A stretch of 64,000 bases of DNA from a virus. The position numbers were made by a program, and so were the translations under genes. Location: the IMG/VR virus record IMGVR_UViG_3300042374_000295, positions 4,394 through 68,393 of that record; one strand, written 5' to 3'. This document shows, one piece after another, positions 5,790-24,863 of this stretch. The number at the start of each line of letters is the position of its first letter. The first letter of the stretch is position 1. The notes beneath the pieces are model-generated. The model searched no databases, was not told where the DNA came from, and worked only from the letters and a program-made list of their open reading frames with translations.

Positions 5790-8267
5790 TTATACTTGTG
5801 GTGGTTGTTGAGGTTGTCCTTGTTGTTGCATCATTTGTTGTTGTTGTTGTAGAGCGGCCTGTTGCTGTTGTTGCATCATCTGTTGTTCATTTTGCTTCTC
5901 AGACAGGTCGTGCTGGTGCTGCATATCGATCGCCTTCATTGTGGCCTGGTTGTCTACCTGCATACCCTGAGTCAGTCTAATCTCGTCCATCTTGAAGTAG
6001 TGCTGCATCTCTAGTGTCTTGCGCTTTTCTTCGTTTTCATGAGTTATCTTAGCCATCTCAGCGTCTATAATAGCCTGCTCCTGCTCACCTTTTTGTTGTT
6101 GTAGCATTTGGTTCTGTTGACCTTGCTGCTCGATAGCCATCTGACTCTGTTGCTCTTGTTGCTTTGTTACAATTTGTTCCCTGTTAGCAATATAAGCCTG
6201 TGCCATCTTTAGCATACCCTTATTTACAAAGTCCTGTACAATTAAATAGTCAGAGTAACTTAGTAATGGAACACCTTGTCTTCCTACGCGCATAGCCTCC
6301 AATGCTGCCTGCAATAACGCCTGCTTTTCCTGTTGGTCAGGTTTTGCCTCAATCCTTACGTTGAACATTGCGTTGTTTATCTCTGCACCAATCTTTAAGG
6401 TTTGAGTTATACTAGATCCAAGGGCCTTGTAGTAACTTAGCTCGTAAGCACCGTTGTATTTAACAAGTAACTGTATTCTTAGTGCAGCGTTTCTAAACGA
6501 TCTCTCCTTAATTGTAATGTACGCTGAGTACATAGGCCTCAATGTTGTGGATGTTGCCTGTAGTGACATCTCTGACACACCAACCGACTGGTCACGCATG
6601 GGAGACGTAGCGTCAGCAACGCTACTTATACCTATTATCTGACGGATCATGTTAATATCGCTAGACATCAACATCAAAAATTCCTGTCCTGCGTTACCTA
6701 GACCACCCTGCAACTCCTGTATAGGCTTGTAGTTTGTCTGTGACGGCATATAGGTCCTGTGGGTTGTAGCCTGGTACAGTATGTCACCCGTCTGATTCCT
6801 TATTTTAAGCACCTCTAGAGGCGTTAACTTATTGTTACCTATGCTCACGTTCAACAACGATCCGTACTCTATTGCTAGACCGTTAGGTGCAGCCTTGGCC
6901 TTTGCGTTCTGTAGCTTTAACCATGACAACTGAATGCTATCCAATAAAGGTATCATCCTCTTAACCATGCTACCAGACTTCATCTTGTAGGCGTGGAAGC
7001 TTAGGTTAGCCTCTGATGGTGTTGGTCTAGGAATGTCAAACTGGTGACCGTAGTCCCAGGCGTACTCTGTTCCAACTATCCACTTGCACTTGTAGACCAT
7101 TAAGGTCTTGCTTATGTTTGTCTTTCTCTTGTCTCCCGTCCTTACCTTGCCAAACTCGTCCCTGTGTACCACTGTCTCTCCCTTAGAGTTTGTTCTCTCC
7201 GTGGTGTACTTAAGGTCGTCCGACTTGTACTCGCAGTCTAATACACATATTCTAAATGTGTCGTACTCGTATCTACCAAACTGGTCAATGTACCAGTTGT
7301 TTATAATTGCCGGGTTGTTGTAGTGGTTAATTGACTTCTGTGCTATCTCTACCAACTCCTCCTCTGTAAACTGAGGTGTGCCGTCTGGCTTGTTCATAGC
7401 CCTAACCTCTGCAATGGTGTAGAATATATACTCACCTGCAAACGGCATATTCTTAAACTCTGACTGGTGGACGTATGGTATAACGCACAGTGCAGGATCG
7501 CAGTATCTAATCTTAATCTTCTGAGTCATTGGATCTAGATAGTCTTTAGCAACCGCAACACCTAACTCAAACAAGTCTTCAAATAATTTTCTTTTTACTT
7601 CCTTCCACTCTGAAAGGTATGCCGTGTAGCGTAGTGCCTCCTCTATTGATATCTCACTCTTAAGCCTGAAGCCTCCCATTGAGGCAAACATCTCAAGCTC
7701 TTTAAGTGTGTCTGGAACGTAGTCTGGAGTTTGTTGTGTTATACCGGCCGCGTTCATGTAGTCTATAATATCACTCAATTCTTTGTTGGCCCATAGCATC
7801 CACTTGTCCTGCTCTTTTTGTGCGCTAGACTTCTCGTCAACGCCGTCGGCATAGATGTCGTGCTCCATGTCCTCAAATGTTCCAAGGATTACGTTCTTAA
7901 AGTTTGGTGCAACGGATAGTATCTCCCAGTTGATGTTCATGTAGCCCTGTCTAACAAAGTCAGACGGCTGTTGAACGGGACTGCTTGTTGAGACAGCTCC
8001 TGCCGGTACTGTTGGCGTTGGACGTTTGGTTATTCCAAGCCAGTCCATGTACTGGAGCTTATCCTGGTTACCGTTACCATACGCGCGGTATCTTGCAAAC
8101 AGGTCAACGTCAGAATAGTTTATCCCTGTTAAGTTGTTTCTGTACAACGTGTGTATTGCCTGGCAGTACTGTACGTTCCAGTCTTTCTTTAGTTTTATAG
8201 CAGGATCTACGCTATGTGACGGGAAGTTATACGCCCCGGTTGTACTATTGTTGTTAAAATTCTCCAT
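5790..8267 (-). CDS. Portal protein
   Basis: 825 aa immediately after TerL; RAYGNGNQ and YMNINWEIL..APNF segments resemble crAss-like portals; Q-rich C-terminal coil. Confidence 0.85.
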   Translation of the reverse strand: MENFNNNSTTGAYNFPSHSVDPAIKLKKDWNVQYCQAIHTLYRNNLTGINYSDVDLFARYRAYGNGNQDKLQYMDWLGITKRPTPTVPAGAVSTSSPVQQPSDFVRQGYMNINWEILSVAPNFKNVILGTFEDMEHDIYADGVDEKSSAQKEQDKWMLWANKELSDIIDYMNAAGITQQTPDYVPDTLKELEMFASMGGFRLKSEISIEEALRYTAYLSEWKEVKRKLFEDLFELGVAVAKDYLDPMTQKIKIRYCDPALCVIPYVHQSEFKNMPFAGEYIFYTIAEVRAMNKPDGTPQFTEEELVEIAQKSINHYNNPAIINNWYIDQFGRYEYDTFRICVLDCEYKSDDLKYTTERTNSKGETVVHRDEFGKVRTGDKRKTNISKTLMVYKCKWIVGTEYAWDYGHQFDIPRPTPSEANLSFHAYKMKSGSMVKRMIPLLDSIQLSWLKLQNAKAKAAPNGLAIEYGSLLNVSIGNNKLTPLEVLKIRNQTGDILYQATTHRTYMPSQTNYKPIQELQGGLGNAGQEFLMLMSSDINMIRQIIGISSVADATSPMRDQSVGVSEMSLQATSTTLRPMYSAYITIKERSFRNAALRIQLLVKYNGAYELSYYKALGSSITQTLKIGAEINNAMFNVRIEAKPDQQEKQALLQAALEAMRVGRQGVPLLSYSDYLIVQDFVNKGMLKMAQAYIANREQIVTKQQEQQSQMAIEQQGQQNQMLQQQKGEQEQAIIDAEMAKITHENEEKRKTLEMQHYFKMDEIRLTQGMQVDNQATMKAIDMQHQHDLSEKQNEQQMMQQQQQAALQQQQQMMQQQGQPQQPPQV

Positions 8268-10447
8268 TAGTAATTATATGTCTCTACAAAGGTATAGTTA
8301 ATTTCAATATCTTGTTTTTGTTGCTTTTGTATATCCGGCAGGTAGTGGCTTATGCCTAGCATGGCGTATCCCCCTGCGGTAAACATATCAAAGTTCGTCA
8401 TATCGTCCACCCCCTTGATATCCCTCACCTCTATTAGTAGTTGAGAGTGTTTCTCCTTCATGACGTGCCTCTCTATATAGGTCTGGTAGAGCTGAAATAT
8501 TTTTTGTTTAACCTTTTCAGTAGTGTCACCACCTGCTATCATGTCGTGCTTACCCTTCTCCTGCCTGTGGATTAACATTGCGCCGTATCCGTTCTCCTCA
8601 AAGTGCTCCCTGACGAATGGCACGTTTGTCTCTGGGAACATTGGACAGCCCCAGTACACGCACATCATAATCATGTCGTCTCCATACTCCGGCTTTGTGT
8701 CTGGTCTGAACGAGTAGGTGCAGACAAACCTGTTGCTCTGCCACTCCTCGAATGGTTTCTCAAACGGATCCAGCATAATGTCGTGGCCCCAGAACACAGC
8801 ACCTGCACCGTTGGACCTTTTCTTACCCTTGGTTGTGTTAGCCTTGAACGGATCCGCACCTGCGCAGAACTGTACGTTGTCGGCCACGAATGACTCTATG
8901 TTAGAGTCCCAGGTAACCCTGTTGGCCTTGTCTGCCGTTAGTTGGTATGACATCTCAAACCTTCCGTTCTCGTGCGGTATAAACTTAACACCACTCTGGT
9001 ACGGTGTTCCTATCCACTCAAAGTTACCCTTTACTGTCCCCGTCGGATCGCTTGCAATCTCGTCAAGCCTGTCCTCTATCTTGGATATGTTAAAGAATGG
9101 ATCCTTTGAGTTGGATCTGAAGCATCCCCTGTACGTTGTCGGGTGTTCACGCTGAAATTGTAGCAGCTTGTCCTTCTTTGGTAGAGTCTTTAGGTAGTCT
9201 ATTGTGTTGAGGATGTGCTCCTTAGCTCCAACCGTTCCCTTTATATCTTTAGCCTGTTGCTCTGTTGGGTTCTCAATAACGCTGTTGCCGTACCTGTCAA
9301 TGTAACCCTCTAGTCCGTCCCATGTAGGTGTGAACAGGACGTATAAACCTGTAGCGGTCTGGCCGTTTGCGCTACGCTTCCCAAACTGGGAATTTTCGCA
9401 CAGCTCCCTGAACTGCTCACCACCACCTAGCTCCATCTCACCCACCGTTGAGGTGTGTATACTGAAACCGTGTATCTTTGTGCCGGCTCCAGTTGACAGA
9501 CACAGCTGAGCAACCTCCCACCTCTTGTTAATGTCTATGCTTGCCGCCTTACCAACCTCCTCGTGGTGGTAGAAGTAGAGCTTTGTTCCGTCATAGGCTG
9601 TCTCTATAGAGGACCTAAAACTTATCTCACTACCTAAGGACTTGTTTGACTTGTACTTAATACCTGCCTTACCCCTGGACGATGCCGCCCTGAACGCTAG
9701 GAGTGCCTTTGGATCGTCGCCACCGTTGTGGTTGGGCTTGAAGAAGAATGGCATACTGCGCCATGGGTCTATGATGTGTTTCTGGAATACGTCCTTGCCG
9801 GAGTCGTCCGTCATTGACTGAATACCACCACGGGCCTTTATTAGTAGTGTTATAATGCAGTAGTGTATGCAACTAGTCTTGTAGGTTGCGCCCTCGCGCC
9901 TGTGCTTGGGGTAAACAAACCCGTAACACTTTGGATCGTTGTGGCAGTACCTTGCAAAGTGGAAGAAACGTCTGTCCCTGTCACGATACTCAGGCAGGCC
10001 GTGGTCCAACTCAAAGTAGTTTAAGTAAAAATAGTGCCAACCGTCAATATAAGTAGGGACTCCGTTGTTAAAGAACCAGTAACCGTCTAGCCTGCGCCTC
10101 CACTCCCTCTTTATGAACTTAAGTTCCTCCTTGTAGTATTCGGGTTGCTCCTCCATTCTGCCCCATATCTCGTCCTGCGTTAGGAAGTAGCCGTCCTCGT
10201 CCTGGGTCTGTTGCAGCTCAATTATTTTGGATGGGACAATGGTCCTCTCAAACTTTTGGCCTTGAGCCAATTGGCCAAAACCAGGTATTTTATTGAGTTC
10301 TGGCGGACTTGGTAGCGTAACCCTTATCGTGTCAAGGTCCTTGTCCTCCTCGTTGAAGTCAATAAACTCTTGAGCAGGCCCGTAGGTCTCAAGCACCTTA
10401 GCCTTGACTCCCCACCTCTTTGCGTTCCTTACTATATCAATATCCAT
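8267..10447 (-). CDS. terL: Terminase large subunit
   Basis: Walker A-like KHRREGAT, GYWF.NNG.PTYI.G.HY motif, Walker B-like YHHEEVGK, nuclease motifs GADPF and PETN. Confidence 0.9.
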   Translation of the reverse strand: MDIDIVRNAKRWGVKAKVLETYGPAQEFIDFNEEDKDLDTIRVTLPSPPELNKIPGFGQLAQGQKFERTIVPSKIIELQQTQDEDGYFLTQDEIWGRMEEQPEYYKEELKFIKREWRRRLDGYWFFNNGVPTYIDGWHYFYLNYFELDHGLPEYRDRDRRFFHFARYCHNDPKCYGFVYPKHRREGATYKTSCIHYCIITLLIKARGGIQSMTDDSGKDVFQKHIIDPWRSMPFFFKPNHNGGDDPKALLAFRAASSRGKAGIKYKSNKSLGSEISFRSSIETAYDGTKLYFYHHEEVGKAASIDINKRWEVAQLCLSTGAGTKIHGFSIHTSTVGEMELGGGEQFRELCENSQFGKRSANGQTATGLYVLFTPTWDGLEGYIDRYGNSVIENPTEQQAKDIKGTVGAKEHILNTIDYLKTLPKKDKLLQFQREHPTTYRGCFRSNSKDPFFNISKIEDRLDEIASDPTGTVKGNFEWIGTPYQSGVKFIPHENGRFEMSYQLTADKANRVTWDSNIESFVADNVQFCAGADPFKANTTKGKKRSNGAGAVFWGHDIMLDPFEKPFEEWQSNRFVCTYSFRPDTKPEYGDDMIMMCVYWGCPMFPETNVPFVREHFEENGYGAMLIHRQEKGKHDMIAGGDTTEKVKQKIFQLYQTYIERHVMKEKHSQLLIEVRDIKGVDDMTNFDMFTAGGYAMLGISHYLPDIQKQQKQDIEINYTFVETYNY

Positions 10448-13983: not shown

Positions 13984-14223
13984 ATGTGCTCATAGTGATC
14001 TGGAAACCCGTCGTACGTCTCCATTAATCCATAGAGTGCTCTTGGGTTGGATCTTCGGTTATGGCCTGGTAGGTGACAAGGTAGGATGCCGGGACCTCTG
14101 CCACTGGATCCTTTCCAAGCCAGTAGGACATAAGCCCATTTGTTAGGTAGTGTGTGTCCCACACAAACTGAATGGGAGCCCTGTCGGTCTGGAGCGTGTG
14201 CACGGTTGCTATGTATTTTGATT

Positions 14224-14568
14224 TCATTTTATTGTCGGTTTGTTGTATGTCTTCTCTAGCCACACCTTAAGCTCGTGGCTGCTTCGTCTTTCGTTCTGTA
14301 GGTAGAACAGGTCCCATATGTCCTGCCACGGTGACCTTGGCTCTACCGGTTTCTCTGGGTAGACCTGTATGATGTGGGCCTGCTTATCCTTGAGCTCAAA
14401 CTCAACCCACACGTCACAATTATTTGAAAAACTGTGACACTTTACCGTCTTGCCAACTATGTGCCCAGGGATCTCGTTGTAGTCCCTGTAGTGCACCTCG
14501 TTAGTATCGCAGTCGTACAGTCCTATCATATATCCTCGCACCATATGGGTGTCTTCTCGCCAACCCAC
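14224..14568 (-). CDS. Hypothetical protein (true start probably MIGLYDC near 14529)
   Basis: ORF within a coupled gene string. Confidence 0.5.
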   Translation of the reverse strand: MGWREDTHMVRGYMIGLYDCDTNEVHYRDYNEIPGHIVGKTVKCHSFSNNCDVWVEFELKDKQAHIIQVYPEKPVEPRSPWQDIWDLFYLQNERRSSHELKVWLEKTYNKPTIK

Positions 14569-14765
14569 GATCCGGCTATGTTGTAGTAGAAGTGGTCAAG
14601 TGCGTCCTCCTCTGTCATTCCCTCGGCCATGAGTATCTCAATACACTTCTTCATTGAATATATAAGCCTGAAGTCTCTGGTGCAGATACCTATCACAGCG
14701 TCATCAAAGCCGTCTGCCTTTAATAACTCCTCGTCCCCGTATGATTCTATTAGTCTATCTAACAT
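14526..14765 (-). CDS. Conserved hypothetical phage protein (xDGFDxAxIG family)
   Basis: LLKADGFDDAVIG...IYS..KCIEIL...M..EDA...FYYNI.G.WVGEKTP. Confidence 0.7.
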   Translation of the reverse strand: MLDRLIESYGDEELLKADGFDDAVIGICTRDFRLIYSMKKCIEILMAEGMTEEDALDHFYYNIAGSWVGEKTPIWCEDI

Positions 14766-14766
14766 A

Positions 14767-15078
14767 CTACGCGTCTCCCTTAGGTCCCATTAAACTTGGA
14801 TTGTAACCGTTATCCCTCTCCTTGATATTGCTGTGCGCCAGCTCTGCCGCTACGGTCAGCACAATCATGGTAAGCTCATCGGACGCCTTACACGAGGTGT
14901 ACAGCGCGGAGGCTAGGCAGGGCCCTGTACCCACAATTGCTGTAATGGCTGCCTGGCCGCTGTTGGTTACAAGCATAAACCCCTGGTCAGGGTTTTTTTC
15001 TTCGTTCATTAACTCGCTCACCTTTTCGGCAAGCTTTACCAATTTTTTTAGTTCTGGGTTCTTTACTTCCTGTTTCAT
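14767..15078 (-). CDS. Hypothetical protein
   Basis: ORF preceded by the promoter at 15086-15117. Confidence 0.6.
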   Translation of the reverse strand: MKQEVKNPELKKLVKLAEKVSELMNEEKNPDQGFMLVTNSGQAAITAIVGTGPCLASALYTSCKASDELTMIVLTVAAELAHSNIKERDNGYNPSLMGPKGDA

Positions 15079-15085
15079 AATGGAG

Positions 15086-15117
15086 CAAATATATATAAGA
15101 ATATATTACTATGCAAA
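15086..15117 (-). promoter_or_regulatory. Promoter TTTG(CATAGTAA)-N20-TATATTTG
   Basis: Bacteroidota consensus with the shared TTTGCATAGTAA extension. Confidence 0.7.
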
Positions 15118-15119
15118 TT

Positions 15120-15293
15120 TTATTTTAATGTCTTTGACTCAACCTCCCTAATAATCTGATCAACAGCCGTAAGTATCCTGTCCCTGGCAGACGTGGCGTA
15201 GAACGCATTGGGTGACGCGTAGCCAAATATGGCCGCTACGTCTAGCTGCTTGAAGTACCTCTTGTAGGGCCTAACCTTTTTCCTTGCTTTCAT
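15120..15293 (-). CDS. Small basic HTH-like protein (57 aa)
   Basis: Manual translation MKARKKVRPYKRYFKQLDVAAIFGYASPNAF...; TATATTTG lies 5 nt upstream of the ATG. Confidence 0.55.
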   Translation of the reverse strand: MKARKKVRPYKRYFKQLDVAAIFGYASPNAFYATSARDRILTAVDQIIREVESKTLK

Positions 15294-15414
15294 GACGGCA
15301 AATATAGTACAAAATCATAGCATATGCTAAGTTTTACACGCGGTGGAGACAAATATTCTGGGGGTAAGTATGCCCTATAGGTATGCTATTATCTAACTAT
15401 CTGATACTCATCAA

Positions 15415-15464
15415 GATTTGCTTTTTTTGCTTTTGTTTGCTTTCGTTTGCTTTAGTTTGCTTTA
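15415..15464. repeat. Iteron-like array of five TTTGCTTT units, 9-10 bp period
   Basis: Seen directly; matches 26966-27004 in inverted orientation. Confidence 0.75.
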
Positions 15465-15929
15465 TTGTAATTCGGTTCTCCTTAGGGATCCTCTTTATAT
15501 CTATAGATTTTTTTCCTTTATGTTGGGAGAGTAGGCTCTAACTAGGCATACCCCTATATTGCTAACCTACCCCACTGTCATTTACTAAGGCACTGGGGGC
15601 CTGTTCTACTTAACCAGGGGGCCATCTTTACTAAAGGGGGTGGGCTCTAAGTGTTTGGGTGAGGTGAATAGGTAGGATACCCATACCTCGCAAACTAAAC
15701 CAAGACAAACCATACTAACCCACCCCACCTTTCAACTATCTAATTGTCAATCAGTTGAGTCGAACAAAGTAAGTAAACTTATCTGACTTAAAGTAAGTGC
15801 AAGGCAAGTGATAGCAAGGGGTAGCGTGTGGTGTGCCATGCTTAGCACCAATGTAAGCAAGGTGGTGCACATGGGGTAGGGTAGGGGAGGGGTTGATACA
15901 CAAGGGGTTGAGAGGGGTAGAAAGCATCT

Positions 15930-15957
15930 AGTTAACATAATGTTTATTATAAGACAG
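15930..15957 (-). other. dif-like XerC/XerD recombination site
   Basis: Minus strand CTGTCTTATAA-TAAACA-TTATGTTAACT; 11-6-11 layout, right arm 10/11 identical to the E. coli XerD arm TTATGTTAAAT. Confidence 0.7.
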
Positions 15958-16182
15958 AAGTGGAGGCTAAATAGCAAGACTTCCATACAGCCCTTCTAAG
16001 CGACTATCTCCCTAGGAAAGGTATCTAAGGTAGGGTGAGGGGGAGAAAGTGTGGTGCAAGGCGTATCTTTGACTGCAAAAGGCAAGTTCCCTCCCTCACT
16101 TTCCATCTCAAAAAAAGTCGGCCAAGAATAATACACCTCTCGCCTCTCTTCCCTATCTTTGCTGACCATTACAATACATCCC

Positions 16183-16839
16183 ATGTCAGTAGAGCATACA
16201 TATACCAAGCATCCTAAAGGTAAGCATAGAGCATCTGACGAGGTGGAGAGCGTTCTCCCCTCTGCTGAGTATAAAGCCTTATTGTCTTCCATCCCTATTA
16301 AGCACATAATGAATGATGATAGAGTTAAGACTGCCATGTTTAGACGGCAATGCCATAGGGAGGAAGTTAACGAGGGTATTCGCCTAGGTAAAGAGTCCTT
16401 AGCCTTTGGATATCTTGTTGGATTAATCCTTCCTTCCGTGGTGGCTAAGGTGCAGTCATCTGCCTTGTCTCCCTTTCGCTCTCTGACTGCGCACCATGTC
16501 CATGTGTTGTTGTGTGTGTGGGTAGTTCAGCAGTTGAATGATGGTGTAGTAAGGCTTGGGCAGTTATTACCCTACAATAAGAAGGATACAACAACTCAGA
16601 GGCGCAAGGTGTTGGGTGAGCTAATCTCTCTAGGCTATGTGGAAGAATTGAACCACTTGGATGTACACGCACGGAGTGGCAAGGTCTTGAAGCCTATATT
16701 CAATAACTCCAATACCACTAAACACTATGCTCTGACAAGGCTTGGCGAGAGGTTGACCGACGAATTTAATGCCATGTTCAGCAAGGCTCACTCCAAGGCC
16801 ATTGGTGAGTTTTGGATTTCCTCCCTAGACAAGCTATAA
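16183..16839 (+). CDS. Winged-helix (MarR-like) DNA-binding protein
   Basis: LTAHHVHVLL...LGELISLGYVE...YALTRLGE wHTH pattern; start uncertain. Confidence 0.5.
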   Translation: MSVEHTYTKHPKGKHRASDEVESVLPSAEYKALLSSIPIKHIMNDDRVKTAMFRRQCHREEVNEGIRLGKESLAFGYLVGLILPSVVAKVQSSALSPFRSLTAHHVHVLLCVWVVQQLNDGVVRLGQLLPYNKKDTTTQRRKVLGELISLGYVEELNHLDVHARSGKVLKPIFNNSNTTKHYALTRLGERLTDEFNAMFSKAHSKAIGEFWISSLDKL

Positions 16840-17089
16840 TAACTATCTATTTCTCAGAGGCTTACAAGCAAGTCTCACGCATTCATTGGGTTTGCCGATA
16901 TTCGGTGTTTTTGATGCCTAACTTTGGCCAATAATTGCTGTTTTTTGGCTTAAAAATGGATTCTTCTAAAATTATTTACAAAATTATTCTCTCTCATTTT
17001 CAATAGGTTACAATCTATTTTGTACTTTTTTTAAAAATATATTTTTTTTATTGAATTATCTGCCCGAGTATTGCACCACTGAATCGGAC

Positions 17090-17415
17090 TATTAATATTC
17101 TCCCACATTCAGCAGTTCTTTCACTTATCTTATGTATGTATGCGAGGCCTCTAGTAAGGCACGACATATTGCACCATATATACACAAGACATTTGTGGTT
17201 CTGAAACCACACCGACCGAAAATCTAATGCCGTGAGGCAGTAAGAGGGTTATCCAAACTATGAGCAGACAAAGTAAGACCATAGGGAAACAAGTAGGGAG
17301 TGTGGCGAAGAGTTCTTTGAAATATAGGGTTTGTTACCCGACCAATTGGCACGATAAGTAGTAGGCAACCCACGAGGGGCAAAAGCCGAAGCGAATGTGC
17401 ATAATCTAACAATTC
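17090..17415 (+). ncRNA. Structured early leader with boxA-like sites
   Basis: ORF-poor; stems TGTATGTATG/CATATATACA, GCCT/AGGC, TGTGGTT/AACCACA, TGCC-GTGA-GGCA; AGTTCTTT near 17114 and AGTTCTTTGAAA at 17311-17322. Confidence 0.45.
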
Positions 17416-17422
17416 TTCTATA

Positions 17423-17503
17423 AAGCAGATTTAAAAATGGTGTACAAGTTTAAAGGTCGACATCGGCTCTTGATGTGAGGTTCGATTCCTCGCTCTGCTT
17501 CCA
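17423..17503 (+). ncRNA. tRNA-like element 1 (degenerate; acceptor stem, T-arm, CCA)
   Basis: AAGCAGA...GTGAGG-TTCGATT-CCTCGC-TCTGCTT-CCA with internal ATGGTgtaCA; no canonical anticodon arm. Confidence 0.65.
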
Positions 17504-17516
17504 CAATTTTAACAAT

Positions 17517-17744
17517 ATGGCTATCAAATTAAAGCGATTAAACGAAGGCAATTATACCTTCGAAAGCACACACTACAAAGTAAGCGTATACAAATACCAA
17601 AGCAATGGCGAGACCTTATGGACATACGAGGTTACTCGCAAGAGCGATGGCTTCACACTACGCAATTGGAATGACCCTTTTTACACCATGAAAGCGTGTA
17701 AATTAGGGGTGGAATCAGAATTAATAGACCTACCTTTAATATAA
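17517..17744 (+). CDS. Early hypothetical protein
   Basis: Likely start MAIKLK just after tRNA-like element 1. Confidence 0.6.
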   Translation: MAIKLKRLNEGNYTFESTHYKVSVYKYQSNGETLWTYEVTRKSDGFTLRNWNDPFYTMKACKLGVESELIDLPLI

Positions 17745-17751
17745 ATATATC

Positions 17752-17958
17752 ATGGAAAAACCACAATTCACACTCGCAGAAGCCCACGAAATTCAACGCC
17801 AACACCTTTGCGAATGGGCAAAAGTGCTCAAGACATCAGTTTATTTAGCACTCCTACAACACGCCATAGAGTCCAATAAAAGCGTTACTGACCCTTGGGA
17901 AGTATTCAGAGGTCAAAGTATAAGCACTTGGGTTCGAAATTATTCACTTAACAATTAA
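17752..17958 (+). CDS. Early hypothetical protein
   Basis: ORF with ATATCATG start context. Confidence 0.6.
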   Translation: MEKPQFTLAEAHEIQRQHLCEWAKVLKTSVYLALLQHAIESNKSVTDPWEVFRGQSISTWVRNYSLNN

Positions 17959-17962
17959 TATC

Positions 17963-18184
17963 ATGAGCAAAGCAATAACCCTATCGCTATGGATGACCAA
18001 CTCCAAGCTAAAAATAGACCAACACGAACGCGAAATATCGCAAGACTACCAAAGGCTTAAAGAATTAAACAAAGAAATGGCTAACCTATTCGTATCAATT
18101 GATAACCACAATAAAGAAATCGAATTTCTAGAGTTCAGTATAGCTGAGACAAGAAAGCAGAAGGAGGCTCTTAAGAATGCATAG
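17963..18184 (+). CDS. Early coiled-coil protein
   Basis: ORF with CAATTAATATCATG start context. Confidence 0.6.
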   Translation: MSKAITLSLWMTNSKLKIDQHEREISQDYQRLKELNKEMANLFVSIDNHNKEIEFLEFSIAETRKQKEALKNA

Positions 18185-18374
18185 TCGCACAATCAATGTC
18201 ACGCCCAACTATAGCAAGCGTACATTCACACTCAGAGTAAAGTGGAGCGATGGTGACACCTCAAAGTATCGCACATCGCCTATGGGCAAGGCAGAGTTCG
18301 AGGAGTGTACTTATAACACACAAAGCGATTGGGCACACTTTCTACTTAAAAATGAGTGCACCAAACTAAACTAG
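18177..18374 (+). CDS. Early hypothetical protein
   Basis: Coupled ORF. Confidence 0.6.
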   Translation: MHSRTINVTPNYSKRTFTLRVKWSDGDTSKYRTSPMGKAEFEECTYNTQSDWAHFLLKNECTKLN

Positions 18375-18414
18375 TGGATGGTCGCAGAGGGGTTCGACTC
18401 CCCTCGCACTAGCA
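18371..18414 (+). ncRNA. Mini-tRNA-like element 2 (no anticodon arm)
   Basis: CTAGTG-GATGGTCGCA-GAGGGG-TTCGACT-CCCCTC-G-CACTAG-CA. Confidence 0.7.
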
Positions 18415-18433
18415 AATTTAACCAATTAATATA

Positions 18434-18703
18434 ATGAACTACAAATTAATTCAAAAAAGACAAAAAGAGTCGGGCTACAATCAAATGCAAAGACTCATTA
18501 ACAATGGCTCAGTATGGCTTATGGAGGGCTCAATGGGACGCGAAGCAATGCACTTGCTAGAGTGTGGGGCGTGTATGTTACCTACAAAAGCGTTCCGTGA
18601 CTTCTATGGCAATCGTATCCCCTCTAGGTACGAACTTAAGTCGGGTAGCAAGGGCACATATGCCAATAGCGTAGAGTATTATCTAAACAACGAAGCAATT
18701 TAA
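18434..18703 (+). CDS. Early hypothetical protein
   Basis: Q.LIN.G.VW.MEGS.GR.AM..LE.G.CML pattern recalled from phage early proteins. Confidence 0.65.
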   Translation: MNYKLIQKRQKESGYNQMQRLINNGSVWLMEGSMGREAMHLLECGACMLPTKAFRDFYGNRIPSRYELKSGSKGTYANSVEYYLNNEAI

Positions 18704-18715
18704 CCAATTAATATC

Positions 18716-18955
18716 ATGAAAAAACCAATCAACCATTGGGATTCCTATGGCGTATTCGCTATAGCAACCTACATTCAACAAGCAGAAGCAATAGATAGCA
18801 ATGAAGCAAGAGACCTTGACTCATTGTGGGATGAAGCTATTTTTCTTTACAATAATTTTGTTGTAAGCAAATTTAACGATGTCAACCAAAGCGAACTTGA
18901 CTGCATATATCAATTCCTTGACGCTCCTATGACCTTAGACAATGTAATAGGCTAA
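18716..18955 (+). CDS. Early hypothetical protein
   Basis: ORF with CAATTAATATCATG start context. Confidence 0.6.
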   Translation: MKKPINHWDSYGVFAIATYIQQAEAIDSNEARDLDSLWDEAIFLYNNFVVSKFNDVNQSELDCIYQFLDAPMTLDNVIG

Positions 18956-18973
18956 ACCAAATCAATTAATATC

Positions 18974-19747
18974 ATGAACAAATATCAAATCAAATTAACA
19001 AGAGTGTGGGACACCTACACCGAAATCGAGGCTCTGACAATGGAAGACGCCTTGACAATGTATGACACCATGGTCACCAATGGCACGATGGCTCAAAAGG
19101 AGCTAGAACAAATGGGCATCTCTGACGAGAGCTACAAGGTGACCTTGCTAGAGCGAGAATCTGACTCAACGCCCACACCCCCAAAAGTGTGGCGCGACAA
19201 TGACCAAGTCGAATGGCAATACTACGCAAGAGAATGCAGTGTAACGGGTGAGGGGATGTATGAAGGTTGGGTGGTGGATGGTGGCTTAATGTATTTTAAG
19301 TACGAAAGCGATGCCATTGAGTATTGCAAGAATCACCTAAACATGACCTTGGCTGAGGCGTACGAGGATAGCGAGGAGAACGGAGGTGACGGCTTTTATT
19401 GGACATCATGGGAAGACGAAAGCGAGTACCAATATCGCCTCGTTGATGGCGTTTTAATTGAGGAGGGTGACGAGCGCTTTGAATATGATTACGAAGAGCC
19501 TATAGATGAGGACACACTAAAGCAAGAGTACATGACAAGCACTGAAGAGATGCAACATCGCATGGCAATGATTCTAGACGACATGAAAGTAATCAGAGCA
19601 TTTATTAATGAGCAAGGCTTGAACGAAGTATTTCAGAAGCCTACAAGCATGGCTGATGAGTGTTGGACTCACATTAACAACATAGAGATAGCGTGTGACA
19701 TTGATGACAACGAGTGTCTGACATGGTCAAAGTTCAGCAGAGGTTAA
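18974..19747 (+). CDS. Acidic early protein, apparently a fusion of small modules
   Basis: 257 aa, very D/E-rich; contains a C..TGEGM.EGW...FYWTSWE module. Confidence 0.6.
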   Translation: MNKYQIKLTRVWDTYTEIEALTMEDALTMYDTMVTNGTMAQKELEQMGISDESYKVTLLERESDSTPTPPKVWRDNDQVEWQYYARECSVTGEGMYEGWVVDGGLMYFKYESDAIEYCKNHLNMTLAEAYEDSEENGGDGFYWTSWEDESEYQYRLVDGVLIEEGDERFEYDYEEPIDEDTLKQEYMTSTEEMQHRMAMILDDMKVIRAFINEQGLNEVFQKPTSMADECWTHINNIEIACDIDDNECLTWSKFSRG

Positions 19748-19795
19748 CTGACGAGCCTTCACTAGGCGAAACAAGGCGAAAGCCTTGTCTTAATC
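19742..19795 (+). ncRNA. Hammerhead ribozyme (type I), predicted cleavage after C19789
   Basis: Stem I GGTTAA/TTAATC; core CTGACGA; stem II GCCT-TCACT-AGGC; GAA; stem III ACAAGGC-GAAA-GCCTTGT; cleavage triplet GTC. Confidence 0.9.
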
Positions 19796-19805
19796 ATATA
19801 TTATC

Positions 19806-20696
19806 ATGAACCAAACAATTTTCAATCAAACATTAGACCTTTTAGAGTCTACTAACTTAAATTGGTCAGTGACCAAAGAGCCTTTATTCACTGCTGATGG
19901 CAAAGCATCCGAGACCTTTGGAATGTACCGCAGTGACACAAACGATTGGCTTGGGAGCGTGGGTAACAAGTACGCACCCATGCAGAACCACACACTCGCT
20001 GAGACCATTGTAATGGCGTCGCAAGGCATCCAATGTCAAAAGCATCGTGGTGGCTCGTTAGATGGTGGTAGCAAGGTGTTTATCCAATGCGAACTGCCCG
20101 ATGAACACATTGGCAATAGTGGTGTGAAGCGTTGGCTGACTGCACTCAACTCGCATGACGGCTCATCGTCTATTGGCTTTGGCTCTACATCGCAAGTGGT
20201 GTTTTGTCAGAATATGTTCCATAAGGCGTTGAAGGAGTTAGCCAAGTTCAGACACACGGCATCTGCTGAGGAGCGTGTACGCCTAGCCTCTGAGGACTTG
20301 AACAAAGCGTTGTTGTCTGACAACATCCTAATGACTGACTTCAAGCGTATGGCAGACCTTAAGATAGGCGAGGAGGTGATAGAGCGTGTAATTAGACGCA
20401 TATTCACATTGGACGCAAAGCAGACTCAGACAAGCGATGTGTCAAGCCTTAAAAAGAATCAAGTCACGGCATTTGCTGATAGCCTACAAACGGAAATTAA
20501 CACCCATGGTCAGACCTTGTGGGCATTGTTCAACGGAGTAACGCGTTACACCAACCACTACGCATCTCCTAAGGATGCCGAAGCAAAGCAAACATACCTT
20601 ATGGTGGGTGGTGGCTACAAGAACAATCTGCTAGGCTTCGAGGAGTGTATGAAGTGGCTAGGCGAGAACACTAAGCAAGTTTATTCATTGGCATAA
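19806..20696 (+). CDS. DUF932 family protein (phage/plasmid TIGR03299-like)
   Basis: LNWSV.KEPL, LG.VG..Y...QN, GSLDGG.KVF, NSHDGSSS, VVFCQN, FRHT and TLWALFNGVT motifs. Confidence 0.85.
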   Translation: MNQTIFNQTLDLLESTNLNWSVTKEPLFTADGKASETFGMYRSDTNDWLGSVGNKYAPMQNHTLAETIVMASQGIQCQKHRGGSLDGGSKVFIQCELPDEHIGNSGVKRWLTALNSHDGSSSIGFGSTSQVVFCQNMFHKALKELAKFRHTASAEERVRLASEDLNKALLSDNILMTDFKRMADLKIGEEVIERVIRRIFTLDAKQTQTSDVSSLKKNQVTAFADSLQTEINTHGQTLWALFNGVTRYTNHYASPKDAEAKQTYLMVGGGYKNNLLGFEECMKWLGENTKQVYSLA

Positions 20697-20703
20697 AGCC
20701 TCT

Positions 20704-20750
20704 AGGGTGTATGGTGAGCAGTAGGGGTTCGAATCCCTTACCACCCTCCA
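20704..20750 (+). ncRNA. Mini-tRNA-like element 3 (no anticodon arm, ends in CCA)
   Basis: AGGGTG-TATGGTGAGCA-GTAGGGG-TTCGAAT-CCCTTAC-CACCCT-CCA. Confidence 0.72.
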
Positions 20751-20768
20751 AATTTAATAAAAAATATC

Positions 20769-20963
20769 ATGAACAAATTAACCAAACTAACAAGAGAGTT
20801 ATTGCTAATGCATTTAGACGATAGCTACAAACAAATTAGCATCATTAGAGACACCATTAAGGTAATCGAGGTGGAGTATGTCCAAGATTTACGAATAGAC
20901 ATATACCTTCTACAACAAAAAATAGAAAGCATAAGCACAATTATAGCCGACAACAAATTTTAA
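20769..20963 (+). CDS. Early hypothetical protein
   Basis: ORF with AATATCATG start context. Confidence 0.55.
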   Translation: MNKLTKLTRELLLMHLDDSYKQISIIRDTIKVIEVEYVQDLRIDIYLLQQKIESISTIIADNKF

Positions 20964-20964
20964 A

Positions 20965-21225
20965 ATGAACCTACCACAATCAATCGAAGTAAGGCTACCT
21001 TGGGAGGAGACTCCCGTGGTGGTCAAGATGACCGACGAGTTGGCAACTACCTTCATATGGTATGTATGCGAAAGCGATAACGTAGCAGAGGTGTCAGAGG
21101 GCATCTACGCCACGCAAGTGTGCCAATACCATGACCGATGCACCCTACACGAACTGTTGAAGGACTTCATCGAGGAGTATATCCCAAGAGACGAACTAAT
21201 CATTATAGACAATGCAAATATATAG
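20965..21225 (+). CDS. Early hypothetical protein
   Basis: Coupled ORF. Confidence 0.55.
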   Translation: MNLPQSIEVRLPWEETPVVVKMTDELATTFIWYVCESDNVAEVSEGIYATQVCQYHDRCTLHELLKDFIEEYIPRDELIIIDNANI

Positions 21226-21439
21226 AATCAACACAACGGCGTGGGAGGAGGAAGACTTAGTACTCTTGACCACATTAAAGGAAAGCGAAATCGAGAGAGT
21301 TATCACGCCTATAGTATTTAGAGAGCGTGAGGGTGGCAACGATTACGACAATGACGAACTAGTAGACGCCCTAAAGAAGGAGTACCCATCTGCCCACATT
21401 GAGCAGTATCAAACCGAGTTACCAATTATAATCATATGA
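21212..21439 (+). CDS. Early hypothetical protein
   Basis: Coupled ORF. Confidence 0.6.
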   Translation: MQIYRINTTAWEEEDLVLLTTLKESEIERVITPIVFREREGGNDYDNDELVDALKKEYPSAHIEQYQTELPIIII

Positions 21440-21669
21440 AAAAAGCAATTTTAGTTCTATTCATGGCGATAGCCATGGTAGGTCAGTCACAAGTTGTAGT
21501 GACTTTAGCCAAAAAACAACAAACCGAGCAGAGCCTTACGGCTACATCAACCAAGACAAAGTATTTGTACAATGACCTACCCGTGTGGATGTCAGTCAAC
21601 GGAAAGTACTTCATCGTGAAGCAAGCGAAGAGTGGTAATTTTTACAAAGTATATGTGGAGGTAAAGTAA
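21436..21669 (+). CDS. Small exported protein with signal peptide
   Basis: MKKAILVLFMAIAMVGQSQ signal-like N-terminus; S.NGK.FI...KSGN.YK C-terminus. Confidence 0.6.
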   Translation: MKKAILVLFMAIAMVGQSQVVVTLAKKQQTEQSLTATSTKTKYLYNDLPVWMSVNGKYFIVKQAKSGNFYKVYVEVK

Positions 21670-21670
21670 T

Positions 21671-21946
21671 ATGAACACAGAGTTAAACAACCAACTAATC
21701 AGAGCAATGGTGAACCACCTAGAGGCTCTTGTAGAAAGCGAAGAACTAAGCGTAAACGATGTATCATACATCAACGATGACCTAGACCTTATGGAGGTAT
21801 CGTACTTCGGATATACGCCCGATGGCGACAAGCAACAAGAGTACGCAGACGCAATAGAGCGTGGCGACCTAGAGACCATTGGCTTCCTTGAAGCGTTAGA
21901 GTTTTTAAGTTCAATGATTAAACATTATTCAACCAAACTATCATGA
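21671..21946 (+). CDS. Early acidic hypothetical protein
   Basis: Coupled ORF. Confidence 0.55.
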   Translation: MNTELNNQLIRAMVNHLEALVESEELSVNDVSYINDDLDLMEVSYFGYTPDGDKQQEYADAIERGDLETIGFLEALEFLSSMIKHYSTKLS

Positions 21947-22368
21947 GCAGTCCAATCAACCCCCTAGAGCTAGCATCTGAGCTAGCTCACCTTAGGGTTC
22001 TAGCTGAGAGCAAAGACCTTATTAACGAAAGCGATATGTATGTCCAAGACACCGAGGGTGTTTTAATCTACAAGGATGACATCCAAGACCGATTCAATAT
22101 CTGGTATGACTTTTACCTAGACCACATAGAGGAAGCGACAAGACCATCATTGCCTTACTCACACATCGTTGAGTTTGAATACGAGGGCAAAGCGTTCACC
22201 TTTGAGATTGGCATCAGCAGTGAGGACGAGTGGTTTGGCGTGAACCAACACAACATGACCTTCGACATACACTACTGCGAGGACTACAACGAGATAAGCG
22301 TATACCGAGTAAGGTACAACAAGGCAGACTATTCAGAAACAATTCACTCACAAGCAATCAAATTATGA
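21943..22368 (+). CDS. Early hypothetical protein
   Basis: Coupled ORF. Confidence 0.6.
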   Translation: MSSPINPLELASELAHLRVLAESKDLINESDMYVQDTEGVLIYKDDIQDRFNIWYDFYLDHIEEATRPSLPYSHIVEFEYEGKAFTFEIGISSEDEWFGVNQHNMTFDIHYCEDYNEISVYRVRYNKADYSETIHSQAIKL

Positions 22369-23159
22369 AGACAATTAAAAGCGAAACATGGCTACCAATA
22401 TTCAGTGGCTATTACAACACAGTGTGGTCACCAGACGAGACACACCTACTATGGGACTCAGACATAGACTTCGAAGACATCGAGGTGGACTACGAGTCTT
22501 ACTACAAGTACACTGCCATCGACATTGTAGATGCAGTGCAGACTGCCCTAAGCCCATTTGTCAAGGACATCACCTTTCAGAAAGTGGTGTCCCCTAAGTA
22601 CTACAACTTCACCAATGACTCTATTGATGTCGAGGTGGAGTACTATCCCGAACAACTGCAAAAGTATTGTGCTGAGTTCAGAGCAGAGCTACAAGTATAC
22701 CTTGAGGACAAGTACACCTCTAGGGATGGCTTCATCTCAAACTTCAGCAATAGCGTTGAGGAGTGGGAGGAGAGCACCAAGTTCTTTACGGACTTCTCCT
22801 CAGAAAGCAAGGGCTACCACACTCTGGGCGCAGTCCTAGACTTCATACTTTACAATGAGGATATTCGCGAGGAGGAAATATTTAATGTAGTAGAGCCCGA
22901 CATCGACACCTACATAACCATCATTACGCAAAGCGTTTCAGAGTTAAGCAATGAGGACACCAAAAAGTTCTTAGAGGCACACCTAGTCAAGATCGATTTT
23001 GAGTTTGGCTACCCAAGTGTACTGAAAGCGAGATGCCAAGAGAAGGCTGATATAGTAGGCTCTACATGGGAAGAGATAATCATAGAGGACTACAAAGATG
23101 ACTTAATCGACATGATAGGAATCAAGAGAGTCAGACACGATTTAACACCTACTGAATAA
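22365..23159 (+). CDS. Acidic early protein
   Basis: Likely start MKTIKS at 22365; PIFSGYY, SPKYYNFTNDSI and SRDGFIS motifs. Confidence 0.65.
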   Translation: MKTIKSETWLPIFSGYYNTVWSPDETHLLWDSDIDFEDIEVDYESYYKYTAIDIVDAVQTALSPFVKDITFQKVVSPKYYNFTNDSIDVEVEYYPEQLQKYCAEFRAELQVYLEDKYTSRDGFISNFSNSVEEWEESTKFFTDFSSESKGYHTLGAVLDFILYNEDIREEEIFNVVEPDIDTYITIITQSVSELSNEDTKKFLEAHLVKIDFEFGYPSVLKARCQEKADIVGSTWEEIIIEDYKDDLIDMIGIKRVRHDLTPTE

Positions 23160-23164
23160 AATAT

Positions 23165-23196
23165 TTTGCATAACAAAAAATAATTATATATAATTG
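23165..23196 (+). promoter_or_regulatory. Promoter TTTG(CATAACAA)-N20-TATAATTG
   Basis: Near-consensus Bacteroidota promoter. Confidence 0.55.
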
Positions 23197-23207
23197 CAAC
23201 CACAAAA

Positions 23208-23423
23208 ATGTCAAAACCAAGTTCATACACGGGACGCATGATGTCCCTCCTGACCATCCTAAAGCAGGGTGAGTCATTTCATACCGAAGTGAGAGCCTCC
23301 ATCGTCCTCCAATATGCGAAAGCAGAGGGCGTGGAGGTTACCACCGAGTCGGTTATTCAAATCGATGAGTACAAATCTGCTCATCCTAGGCTAAGTAAAT
23401 TAACAAAAGTAACAATCATATGA
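23208..23423 (+). CDS. Hypothetical protein
   Basis: ORF after a promoter. Confidence 0.55.
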   Translation: MSKPSSYTGRMMSLLTILKQGESFHTEVRASIVLQYAKAEGVEVTTESVIQIDEYKSAHPRLSKLTKVTII

Positions 23424-23644
23424 AGTCATTCTTAAAGTCACACACAAAGCAAGCCGAATTAGAGTACCCTTGCTTAAAAACAAAAAAAGACACCGAAGGT
23501 CACACAATAGTCCTATTCTCCTCATTTAGGGAGGGGACTTGCGTTCACACAACGAGACCTCAGAATTTTGTTGGAGACTATAGCACAAATTGGGGTGAAG
23601 AGTTTTTCGAACCATTCACAGGAGAGCTAGTTCTTAAAAATTAA
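23420..23644 (+). CDS. Hypothetical protein
   Basis: IVLF....GT.V......GDYS..W....F.PF.G pattern. Confidence 0.6.
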   Translation: MKSFLKSHTKQAELEYPCLKTKKDTEGHTIVLFSSFREGTCVHTTRPQNFVGDYSTNWGEEFFEPFTGELVLKN

Positions 23645-23648
23645 TACC

Positions 23649-23753
23649 ATGATACCAATATTCATTCTAGCGTTTATCATATTCTGCATTGCAATGGTCT
23701 TAATATCAAAAGCAGTTCATACATGGAGGTCACAAGATGGCGATGACTTCTAA
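23649..23753 (+). CDS. Small single-TM peptide (34 aa)
   Basis: Manual translation MIPIFILAFIIFCIAMVLISKAVHTWRSQDGDDF. Confidence 0.45.
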   Translation: MIPIFILAFIIFCIAMVLISKAVHTWRSQDGDDF

Positions 23754-23760
23754 AAAATAA

Positions 23761-23792
23761 TTTGCATAGTAATTTATTTTAATGTAATATTG
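23761..23792 (+). promoter_or_regulatory. Promoter TTTG(CATAGTAA)-N20-TAATATTG
   Basis: Shared TTTGCATAGTAA motif; ATG 4 nt downstream. Confidence 0.65.
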
Positions 23793-23796
23793 TGAA

Positions 23797-23973
23797 ATGC
23801 AAATAGGAGACAAAGTAAAGTGGCGTTCCTTCAAGGTCATCGATAGGTGGGGAGAGGGCATCGTCATCCTTGTAGTCCGAAAGAAGCACGTCTACGAATA
23901 TCACATTCAAACAAATATGTCGGGCATACACTCAGTTATCATAAGATACACTGGCGATATACATCCCATCTAA
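23797..23973 (+). CDS. Small SH3-like protein (58 aa)
   Basis: Manual translation MQIGDKVKWR...GIV. Confidence 0.45.
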   Translation: MQIGDKVKWRSFKVIDRWGEGIVILVVRKKHVYEYHIQTNMSGIHSVIIRYTGDIHPI

Positions 23974-24021
23974 TCCGACAGCTATGCACACCAACACTAA
24001 CGAAAGTAAATTAAATAAAAA

Positions 24022-24756: not shown

Positions 24757-24863
24757 GATGTCAAAAGCAAAAGAATTGTTCATGCAGATAAGGGAGAGGG
24801 AGTCTAACAAGGCTCTCTCTCTTGAGTCTGATACACCAAAACACTTACAACCAATTAAGAATC

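Follow-up and report, generated by a model that had tools for sequence, protein, structure and literature searches.

What use could a tailed phage without a visible integrase have for a copy of dif, the site at which bacterial XerC and XerD resolve chromosome dimers? The question is raised by a 28-bp element in the IMG/VR virus record IMGVR_UViG_3300042374_000295, which is 68,393 bp long and rated 100% complete. The stretch analysed here (the window, 64,000 nt) comprises bases 4394–68393 of that record. An original prediction, made from the letters of the window, had placed a dif-like XerCD site at positions 15930–15957, in a gene-poor strand-switch region, and had proposed that the phage either replicates as a circle resolved by host XerCD or integrates at the host dif. 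Our analysis points to a predicted working copy of the Bacteroidota chromosome dimer-resolution site, set in a compact cassette with a putative FtsK-loading signal. We favour, with a probability of roughly 0.5, the explanation that FtsK-activated XerC and XerD of the host would carry out recombination between two phage-borne copies of the site, yielding monomer circles.

Match of the site to Bacteroidota dif

The plus strand of the window at 15930–15957 is AGTTAACATAATGTTTATTATAAGACAG, and its reverse complement is CTGTCTTATAA-TAAACA-TTATGTTAACT. Read on the minus strand, the element has the 11-6-11 layout of a dif-type core site, with an XerC-type arm CTGTCTTATAA (15947–15957), a 6-bp central region TAAACA (15941–15946), and an XerD-type arm TTATGTTAACT (15930–15940). 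The two arms carry the inner inverted repeat ATAA/TTAT on either side of the 6-bp centre. The full 28-mer, with up to three mismatches allowed, occurs once in the whole 68,393-bp genome, and the core ATAA-N6-TTATGTTAA occurs once in the window without mismatch. When one mismatch is allowed, the core has two matches in the window against a shuffle mean of 0.33, and 6 of 100 shuffles gave two. Chance statistics from the window by itself are modest and suggestive. The site stands beyond chance because relatives keep its arms at the same place while the spacer varies, as described below.

Predicted dif sequences for 19 Bacteroidetes are given in supplementary file 2 of Kono et al. 2011 (PMC3025954). 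Among those that lie within a few degrees of the GC-skew turning point are the predictions for Robiginitalea (TTGTCCTATAA-TTTATA-TTATGTTAAAT), Dyadobacter (TTGTTGTATAA-TTTATA-TTATGTTAAAT), Cytophaga (TTGTTATATAA-TTTACA-TTATGTTAAAT), Pedobacter (TAGTCACATAA-TTAATA-TTATGTTAAGT), Gramella (..TTATGTAAAAT), and Capnocytophaga (..TTATGTCAAAT). The window arms agree with the predicted Robiginitalea dif at 9/11 positions of the XerC arm and 10/11 of the XerD arm, which makes 19/22, and with the E. coli dif at 5/11 and 10/11, respectively. The site of a relative of the phage (L009, see below) agrees with the predicted Robiginitalea dif at 22/22 arm positions. The comparison with predicted Bacteroidota dif sequences thereby bears out the dif-like nature of the site given in the original prediction.

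To place the site among bacterial sequences, one genome for each of 185,579 species was scanned for TGTCYTATAA-N6-TTATGTTAA. At least 120 loci were found. Among the matches listed, nearly all are from Bacteroidota, with a handful from other phyla, and the taxa include Pedobacter, Hymenobacter, Chitinophagales, Flavobacteriales, Sphingobacterium, and metagenome-assembled genomes (MAGs) of Bacteroidales. The 121 bacterial sites among the matches listed have the right arm TTATGTTAAAT in 79 cases, ..AAGT in 31, and ..AACT, the form of the window, in 3; the window's XerD-type arm is identical to TTATGTTAAAT at 10/11 positions. The spacer in the same sites is TTAATA in 57, TTTATA in 31, and TTTACA in 6, and the TAAACA of the window differs from the host-type spacers TTAATA and TTTATA. 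The listed site nearest to that of the window belongs to Pedobacter sp. L102 (TTGTCTTATAA-TTAACA-TTATGTTAACT, 26/28 identical), and the exact XerC arm of the window recurs as the left arm in Hymenobacter jeongseonensis L054. In five bacterial genomes that were checked whole, the dif-type site is single; two of them have one further exact core match each, which looks like chance.

The phage appears to encode no recombinase. When the complete genome was searched in six frames, neither a tyrosine recombinase (PF00589; controls positive in 14/14 named genomes) nor a serine recombinase (PF00239; controls positive in 12/14 named genomes) was found, which confirms the original statement that no integrase is visible. 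With its Bacteroidota-type arms, its conservation in relatives, and the absence of a phage recombinase, the 28-mer is well supported as a predicted site for host XerC and XerD of the Bacteroidota dif type.

The bacterial scan also returned sites of interest in their own right. A Prevotellaceae MAG contig (L109) has two full dif-type sites, inverted and 130 nt apart (4001–4025 and 4131–4155). Such a pair is unusual for a chromosome and may mark an Xer-dependent element or an invertible segment. Many MAGs of Bacteroidales, Bacteroides, and Prevotellaceae (within L053–L172) share the TTGTCCTATAA-..-TTATGTTAAAT type of site with other Bacteroidota. Different sequences, located 24–135 degrees from the skew turning point, were predicted in 2011 for Porphyromonas, Parabacteroides, Bacteroides thetaiotaomicron, and B. 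vulgatus (PMC3025954), and these four predictions may be wrong.

Conservation of the site in related phages

The nearest cultured terminases are just 23–31% identical to that of the phage and come from podoviruses whose hosts (Flavobacterium, Cellulophaga, Tenacibaculum, and Maribacter) are all Bacteroidota. A blastn search with window 14000–18000 found no match in 50,697 GenBank phage records. Metagenome runs from lake water and fresh water contain the region, in 24 rows that come from 20 studies; at least half of the sampled words are found in 5 of the rows, and 4 may be the source of the record.

A terminase-based search of IMG/VR gave 50 related loci, in which the large terminase subunit (TerL) is 95% identical in two, 80% in three, and about 38–46% in the rest. 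An exact 23-mer of the site occurs in one other viral contig, with a TerL 80% identical. At the homologous position, with mismatches allowed, sites were found in L003 (TTGTCTTATAA-TTATAA-TTATGTTAACT), L004 (CTGTCTTATAA-TCAACA-TTATGTTAACC), L006 (CTGTCTTATAA-TAAACA-TTATGTTAACC), and L009 (TTGTCCTATAA-TTATTA-TTATGTTAAAT; TerL 44%). In a five-way alignment of about 430 nt round the site, mean column identity is 53%, and the 28-mer stands out as an island of identity.

The family survey covered 25 records, namely this genome and 24 relatives whose whole records were searched. A dif-type site is present in 18 of the 25, and in all ten records that are at least 90% complete (this genome and nine relatives), so the original prediction does not fail for want of conservation in related phages. 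The seven records without a site are fragments 25–63% complete, in which the region is probably not covered. In loci that contain both, the orientation of the site relative to the terminase gene is constant. The XerD arms of the family follow TTATGT[T/A/C]AA[A/G/C]T, except for one degenerate arm, TTGTGTTAAAT, in G006. The arms vary little and the six central bases vary freely, which is the pattern expected of an Xer site and suggests that selection keeps the arms and leaves the centre free.

One relative (L219, G010:C1:51400-52600) has an extra half-site resembling the XerD arm, ..ATAACATTATGTCAAAT, about 50 nt before the XerC arm of its full site. In the cultured Tenacibaculum phage Gundel_1, an exact core match was considered as a dif-type site and rejected, as its arms are poor and the motif described in the next section is absent.

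A putative FtsK-loading motif beside the XerD arm

Also conserved in the five-way alignment is the block CCCCT(C/A)CCC, which lies some tens of bases past the XerD arm. Its opposite strand is GGGNAGGG, the consensus of the FtsK-orienting polar sequence (KOPS) of E. coli and Vibrio (PMC5357621). The 64-kb window has seven copies of GGGNAGGG against a shuffle mean of 3.2. Three of the seven overlap (15874–15891, plus strand; starts at 15874, 15879, and 15884), lie 38 nt past the XerD arm, and are directed at the site. In 17 of the 18 site-bearing family records, GGGNAGGG is found 11–56 nt past the XerD arm and is always directed at the site; in relatives with a TerL 41–44% identical, the motif is ctcCCCTACCCtat at a fixed distance of 33–34 nt. 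On the XerC side, the window has GGGAGGG (16090–16096, minus strand), which is 132 nt past the XerC arm and likewise directed at the site, and L006 has GGGGAGGG. This motif is absent from the distant relatives and is a weaker partner that is not generally conserved.

The polarity of the motif was determined in 574 kb of flank from 119 oriented, mostly Bacteroidota dif loci. GGGNAGGG points toward dif 99 times and away from it 5 times (XerC side, 33:1; XerD side, 66:4), with all four bases used at N (28, 27, 23, and 21). GGGAGGG points toward dif 38 times and away 2 times, and purine-rich words in general are skewed just about 2:1. An FtsK gamma domain is encoded in 5/5 Bacteroidota genomes tested. 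Because of the 99:5 polarity and the FtsK gamma domains, GGGNAGGG is a predicted FtsK polarity signal in Bacteroidota.

On chromosomes the motif is seldom this close to the site. Within 150 nt of chromosomal dif it occurs in 0/114 cases on the XerC side and in 3/114 on the XerD side, and two of these three resemble terminator hairpins. On an Edaphocola MAG contig (L075), a dif-type site has TTTCCA, an unusual spacer, and a KOPS lies 15 nt away from its XerD arm; this site resembles the phage cassette more than a chromosomal dif.

The available text of Bonne et al. 2009 (PMC2673442) reports that FtsK loaded on a single arm suffices in vitro when that arm is on the XerD side. The synthetic substrates described there have a triple KOPS directed at dif in 89–109 bp of duplex on the XerD side, and with an XerD-side arm shorter than 114 bp, recombination was more than 10 times more efficient with the triple KOPS. 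FtsK halts at XerCD-dif, according to the available part of Graham et al. (PMC2800217). By analogy, the phage motif occupies the position and orientation that were found sufficient in vitro for activation of XerD.

Central regions of the phage sites

A host-type spacer (TTAATA or TTTATA) is present in 1 of 18 phage family records (G015) and in 88 of 121 bacterial sites (Fisher p = 5e-8), host type being defined here by a sample of Bacteroidota sites picked by arm pattern, which stands in for the phage's own host. Arms that are kept and a host centre that is avoided are what would be expected if exchange between phage copies is wanted and exchange with the chromosome is not. The same spacer logic applies to Vibrio dif2 and to plasmid sites (PMC5357621).

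Proposed mechanism

We propose that XerC would bind the left arm and XerD the right arm of the phage site. The host FtsK motor would load on the GGGNAGGG motif, translocate the short way to the XerD-bound arm, halt there, and activate XerD. XerD and then XerC would exchange strands between two copies of the phage site on one molecule, giving monomer circles. The two copies could be those of a circular dimer or multimer arising from recombination or replication, or possibly those at the ends of a terminally redundant genome. With arms that the host can read and a centre that is not of the host type, the phage would recombine with itself and not with the chromosome. We infer all of these steps from sequence.

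Resolution between phage copies is favoured because the XerD-side FtsK motif is conserved and host-type spacers are avoided. FtsK works at the division septum, so the phage genome would spend time as a circle in dividing cells. The first half of the original proposal, a circle resolved by host XerCD in a plasmid-like carrier state, has to be divided. A resolution-type function gains from the XerD-side motif and the spacers, and a stable plasmid-like state loses from the lack of ParA and ParB and from the lack of a relative in 401 sampled Bacteroidota genomes (see below).

Several observations weigh against the proposed resolution of phage multimers. One family record, G003 (76% complete), has the site without the motif, the sole exception among the 18. 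As the conserved motif is on the XerD side only, it could serve another phage or host protein. No such site is present in the five more remote phages that were checked (an uncultured Manatee Spring podovirus record, Flavobacterium elemoA, Cellulophaga phi38:1 and phi46:3, and Tenacibaculum Gundel_1), where matches to the core pattern are no commoner than matches to a reversed-pattern control. Six-frame searches of the whole genome found neither ParB nor a ParA-like ATPase, with named control genomes positive, and among ORFs (open reading frames) of which many have no assigned function, no partition or plasmid-maintenance gene was recognised. TerL has no relative in the 401 sampled Bacteroidota genomes, and episomal life in dividing cells draws no direct support from them. 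The site lies at divergent genes, unlike the convergent terminus of a chromosome. A lytic phage would have no obvious gain from resolving multimers, which are good packaging substrates. The definition of the host-type spacer given above belongs on the same side of the balance.

Alternative explanations

The second half of the original proposal, integration at the host dif, would make the element an attachment site like those of integrative mobile elements exploiting Xer (IMEX), through which lysogeny is established by XerC/XerD recombination with host dif, as in CTXphi, VGJphi, TLCphi, and Bacteroidetes microvirus proviruses. The missing integrase and the arms near host dif would suit such a life, and there is a precedent in the same phylum, in that dif-like repeats flank microvirus proviruses in Bacteroidales (available part of PMC3091885); a paper on a temperate single-stranded DNA phage of Flavobacterium (PMC9719478) may also bear on this. 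We nevertheless consider integration unlikely. The spacer is not of the host type in 17/18 family records, and a copy integrated between two FtsK-activatable sites should excise at division. The attP of CTXphi type is unlike dif on the XerD side and is acted on by XerC alone (PMC5357621), and TLCphi supplies its own XerD activator (available part of PMC6744903); the phage genome has an FtsK motif instead, and no XerD activator gene was recognised in it, most small ORFs having no assigned function. No integrated copy was found. In a tblastn search with all phage ORFs of at least 60 aa, none of the 120 bacterial dif loci (among the matches listed; full flanks for 80) has a relative within 4 kb. 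TerL relatives are found in 0/401 sampled Bacteroidota genomes, neither as prophage nor as plasmid. A scan of metagenome contigs for the XerD arm with 18 nt of flank gave 0 matches, in a set from which the phage record itself may be absent. An assembly that joins the site to a chromosome, which the original prediction had looked to, was not found either, as contigs of four lake-water runs show neither joints nor loose ends there. In three such runs, contigs cross the site uninterrupted, with the limits that two of these runs are possibly the source of the record and that contigs drop rare forms.

A variant that is compatible with the favoured explanation is cyclisation after injection, in which the site would lie in a terminal redundancy and XerCD would join the end copies. 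A terminase gene is at most about 3 kb from the module in eight of ten hand-picked unrelated contigs that bear it, as would suit a role at genome ends. In this phage, however, the site is 5.5 kb upstream of the terminase gene, and FtsK, which is tied to the septum, would be an odd dependence for a step right after injection. The record has a 127-nt end repeat. Since 127 nt is a common assembler word size, we read this repeat as an assembly overlap, and the ends of the record are therefore not taken as physical ends. The module was also tried as a marker of physical genome ends and rejected, since 18 modules lie within 700 nt of contig ends where 15.5 are expected (control, 10 against 6.7). On balance, cyclisation as the main purpose is rather unlikely. 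Binding of the Xer proteins without recombination is quite unlikely; here the site would position phage DNA at the septum or clear it from there, titrate the dimer-resolution machinery, or mark an origin or terminus. It lies in a large divergent intergenic region, the usual place of origins and control elements, and a segregation aid borrowed from the host would be useful to a phage in which no partition system was found. Yet conservation extends beyond an XerD half-site to both arms and the 6-bp spacing, as catalysis needs; that the host spacer is avoided makes sense only if strand exchange matters; and a search for DnaA boxes found no cluster near the site. That the element is no Xer site at all and resembles dif by coincidence, being a promoter, a palindrome rich in A and T, or a sequence bound by some phage protein yet to be recognised, is highly improbable. 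All family sites have TATAAT across the border of the XerC arm and the spacer, because in close relatives the spacer always begins with T after ..TATAA, and the statistics from the window are weak. However, no sigma-70-like promoter was found over the site, and the 22 arm positions co-vary only as in real Bacteroidota dif, TTATGT[T/A/C]AA[A/G/C]T. The partner motif is moreover a predicted FtsK signal in strict orientation, and the pairing is repeated, with GGGCAGGG and arms of proteobacterial type, in viral contigs described next.

Occurrence of the cassette in other viral contigs

As an orientation control, 2.9 million viral contigs were scanned for the core site followed by the motif at 20–50 nt. 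Likeness to dif was scored on the positions that the pattern leaves free (the spacer and the last two bases), by a matrix from the bacterial sites. With the motif directed toward the site, at least 120 loci were found, and 69/118 among the matches listed are dif-like at the free positions. With the motif directed away, 58 loci were found, and 1/57 is dif-like. Proteins shared with this phage are present in 17/120 of the toward loci (among the matches listed; full flanks for 80). The matches listed include proteobacterial-type arms, ACTTCGCATAA-TGTATA-TTATGTTAAAT, which are paired with GGGCAGGG. The predicted cassette is thus one that reaches beyond this phage family, to at least 69 other viral contigs, in strict orientation.

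Ten unrelated contigs that bear the module, hand-picked for long flanks and not random, were surveyed with PHROG, and head and packaging genes are evident in them. Eight of them (L232, L284, L231, L260, L268, L240, L245, and L248) have a terminase gene, small or large, no more than about 3 kb from the module, for which the binomial p is 4e-4 against a rough guess that 25% of spans of this kind contain a terminase, in loci picked by hand.

A cultured example is Escherichia phage I29, a lytic Vequintavirus (L402, about 103,860–105,000), which has two direct copies of a dif-type site 594 nt apart. The arms are identical to those of E. coli dif in 22/22 positions, the spacer is TGGGTA against TGTATA in the host, and on the XerC side there is a GGGCAGGG at a distance of about 140 nt. 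Recombination between two direct Xer sites in I29 could lead to deletion or inversion of the 594-nt segment.

We suggest tentatively, and with more doubt than confidence, that the cassette of KOPS and dif is a common portable device of tailed double-stranded DNA phages without a recombinase, made of host-type arms, a private spacer, and an FtsK motif directed at the XerD arm. In that case, many phages regarded as virulent, in Bacteroidota, Proteobacteria, and beyond, would live partly as circular episomes in dividing cells and stay monomeric by means of the septal FtsK/XerCD machine of the host. The cassette would then be a sequence marker of a carrier-state or pseudolysogenic life, and its arms would report the host lineage.

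Genomic surroundings of the site

The site is located in a non-coding gap of about 865 nt (15294–16158) that separates minus-strand genes, ending at 15293, from plus-strand genes, starting at 16159. The sequence and the gene-poor strand-switch setting are as originally noted. The minus-strand block beside the gap includes the terminase (8267–10447), portal, and head genes, and the plus-strand block includes a DnaB-type helicase (28340–29698). The position does not look like that of a replication terminus; the site is where the two gene blocks diverge, and the skew follows the gene strand. In the ORF layout there are no family matches inside the gap and no conserved frame over the site. A 79-codon ORF (15747–15986, minus strand) overlaps the site and has no family match. 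It is not kept in relatives, and open frames there shrink to 14–50 codons in the distant ones.

Scans of the surroundings gave little else. Rfam on 15000–17600 returned two matches, both at chance level; a promoter and terminator scan of the same interval gave counts at shuffle level and nothing over the site; and no tRNA genes were found in the window.

Three other elements lie near the module. Four head-to-tail copies of a 10-nt unit, TTTGCTTTNG, are found at 15426–15465, about 470 nt from the site. This repeat breaks assemblies, in that 40-nt contigs and a loose end from the lake-water runs fall exactly there, and it may belong to an origin, as an iteron-like or bent-DNA element. At 15637–15657 and 15706–15726, two G-rich arms, GGGGTGGGC... 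and ...ACCCACCCC, form an imperfect inverted repeat. Distant relatives (L009, L022, L041, L042, L219, and L220) have a conserved GGGGGGCGGGT block followed by a TATA-rich stretch, 150–200 nt beyond the KOPS. The G-rich repeat and the GGGGGGCGGGT block may be a structured RNA, a promoter, or an element of an origin.

In the early block, Pfam recognises the DnaB helicase, DUF932, an AAA_15 ATPase, and DUF6291. No DNA polymerase or primase is recognisable in the early/replication block at 16159–31768. The phage may depend on the replisome of its host, and a circular replicon of the theta type would be in keeping with this. In the virion block, a ferritin-like gene (PF00210, E = 4e-20; 46995–47513) is directly upstream of a 3142-aa ORF (47504–56932).

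Implications

Resolution of phage multimers by host XerCD and FtsK would, if confirmed, provide a testable mechanism for the persistence of integrase-less Bacteroidota phages in growing hosts. The arms track host dif variants and could help to assign hosts to uncultured phages. Chromosome dimer resolution was unstudied in Bacteroidetes according to the available part of Krupovic and Forterre 2011 (PMC3091885). A literature search, with most subscription journals outside its reach, did not turn up any paper on a cassette of this kind in tailed phages, and the available part of a preprint on crAssphage as a phage-plasmid makes no mention of Xer.

Comparison with known systems

The phage site resembles the chromosomal system of dif, XerCD, FtsK, and KOPS in its 11-6-11 core, its near-identical XerD arm, and its XerC arm of the phylum type, as well as in being single per replicon and having GGGNAGGG directed at it. 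Unlike chromosomal dif, it is carried by a 68-kb phage, in a divergent intergenic region and not at a terminus, and its spacer is not of the host type. It also has one block of motifs, 11–56 nt from the XerD arm only, whereas chromosomes have many polar motifs across both replichores. With a triple KOPS that is directed at the site over a short distance and placed on the XerD side only, the arrangement in the window, where the three copies overlap, is like that of the 3KOPS-dif substrates (Bonne et al. 2009, available text of PMC2673442), of which the phage cassette would be a natural counterpart. Those substrates are engineered E. coli sequences, and the phage arrangement is natural and conserved in a family of phages from another phylum.

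The site is also like cer of ColE1 and psi of pSC101, in that host XerCD would serve an extrachromosomal replicon by turning multimers into monomers, and in that the centre differs from dif. Resolution at cer and psi does not involve FtsK and relies on accessory proteins, which bind a stretch of about 180 bp of accessory sequence next to the XerC arm. These proteins are PepA, ArgR or ArcA, as given in the available part of a review that also notes plasmid-like central regions (PMC5357621). Unlike cer and psi, the phage has no conserved XerC-side flank in the five-way alignment, and its conserved partner is the XerD-side FtsK signal.

With the IMEX phages (CTXphi, VGJphi, and TLCphi; BMV1–7), the phage shares the lack of an integrase and a dif-like site that host XerCD would read (available part of PMC3091885; PMC5357621). 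Those are small single-stranded DNA phages integrated at dif, unlike this 68-kb tailed double-stranded DNA phage, of which no integrated copy was found. Unlike a CTXphi-type attP or the site of TLCphi, the phage site has an intact XerD arm and an FtsK signal, and independence from FtsK is not indicated.

In P1, Cre acts at loxP, one short site per genome that cyclises the genome and resolves dimers of the plasmid prophage. By analogy, the phage site would do the same with host enzymes. The available part of PMC10983915 mentions that a recombinase has a role in P1 circularisation. P1 encodes its own recombinase, whereas this phage encodes none and would rely on three host proteins; unlike a P1-like phage-plasmid, it also has no partition genes that were found. 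Closer in its parts is the Vequintavirus I29, which has host-dif-type arms, a changed spacer, and a KOPS-type motif nearby, and which differs in having the site twice, GGGCAGGG on the XerC side, another host phylum, and another phage family. Use of host XerCD is known for plasmids, which employ it for resolution with accessory proteins, and for small single-stranded DNA phages, which employ it for integration. Tailed double-stranded DNA phages with a chromosome-grade site and their own FtsK-loading signal would, if our reading is correct, represent a third mode.

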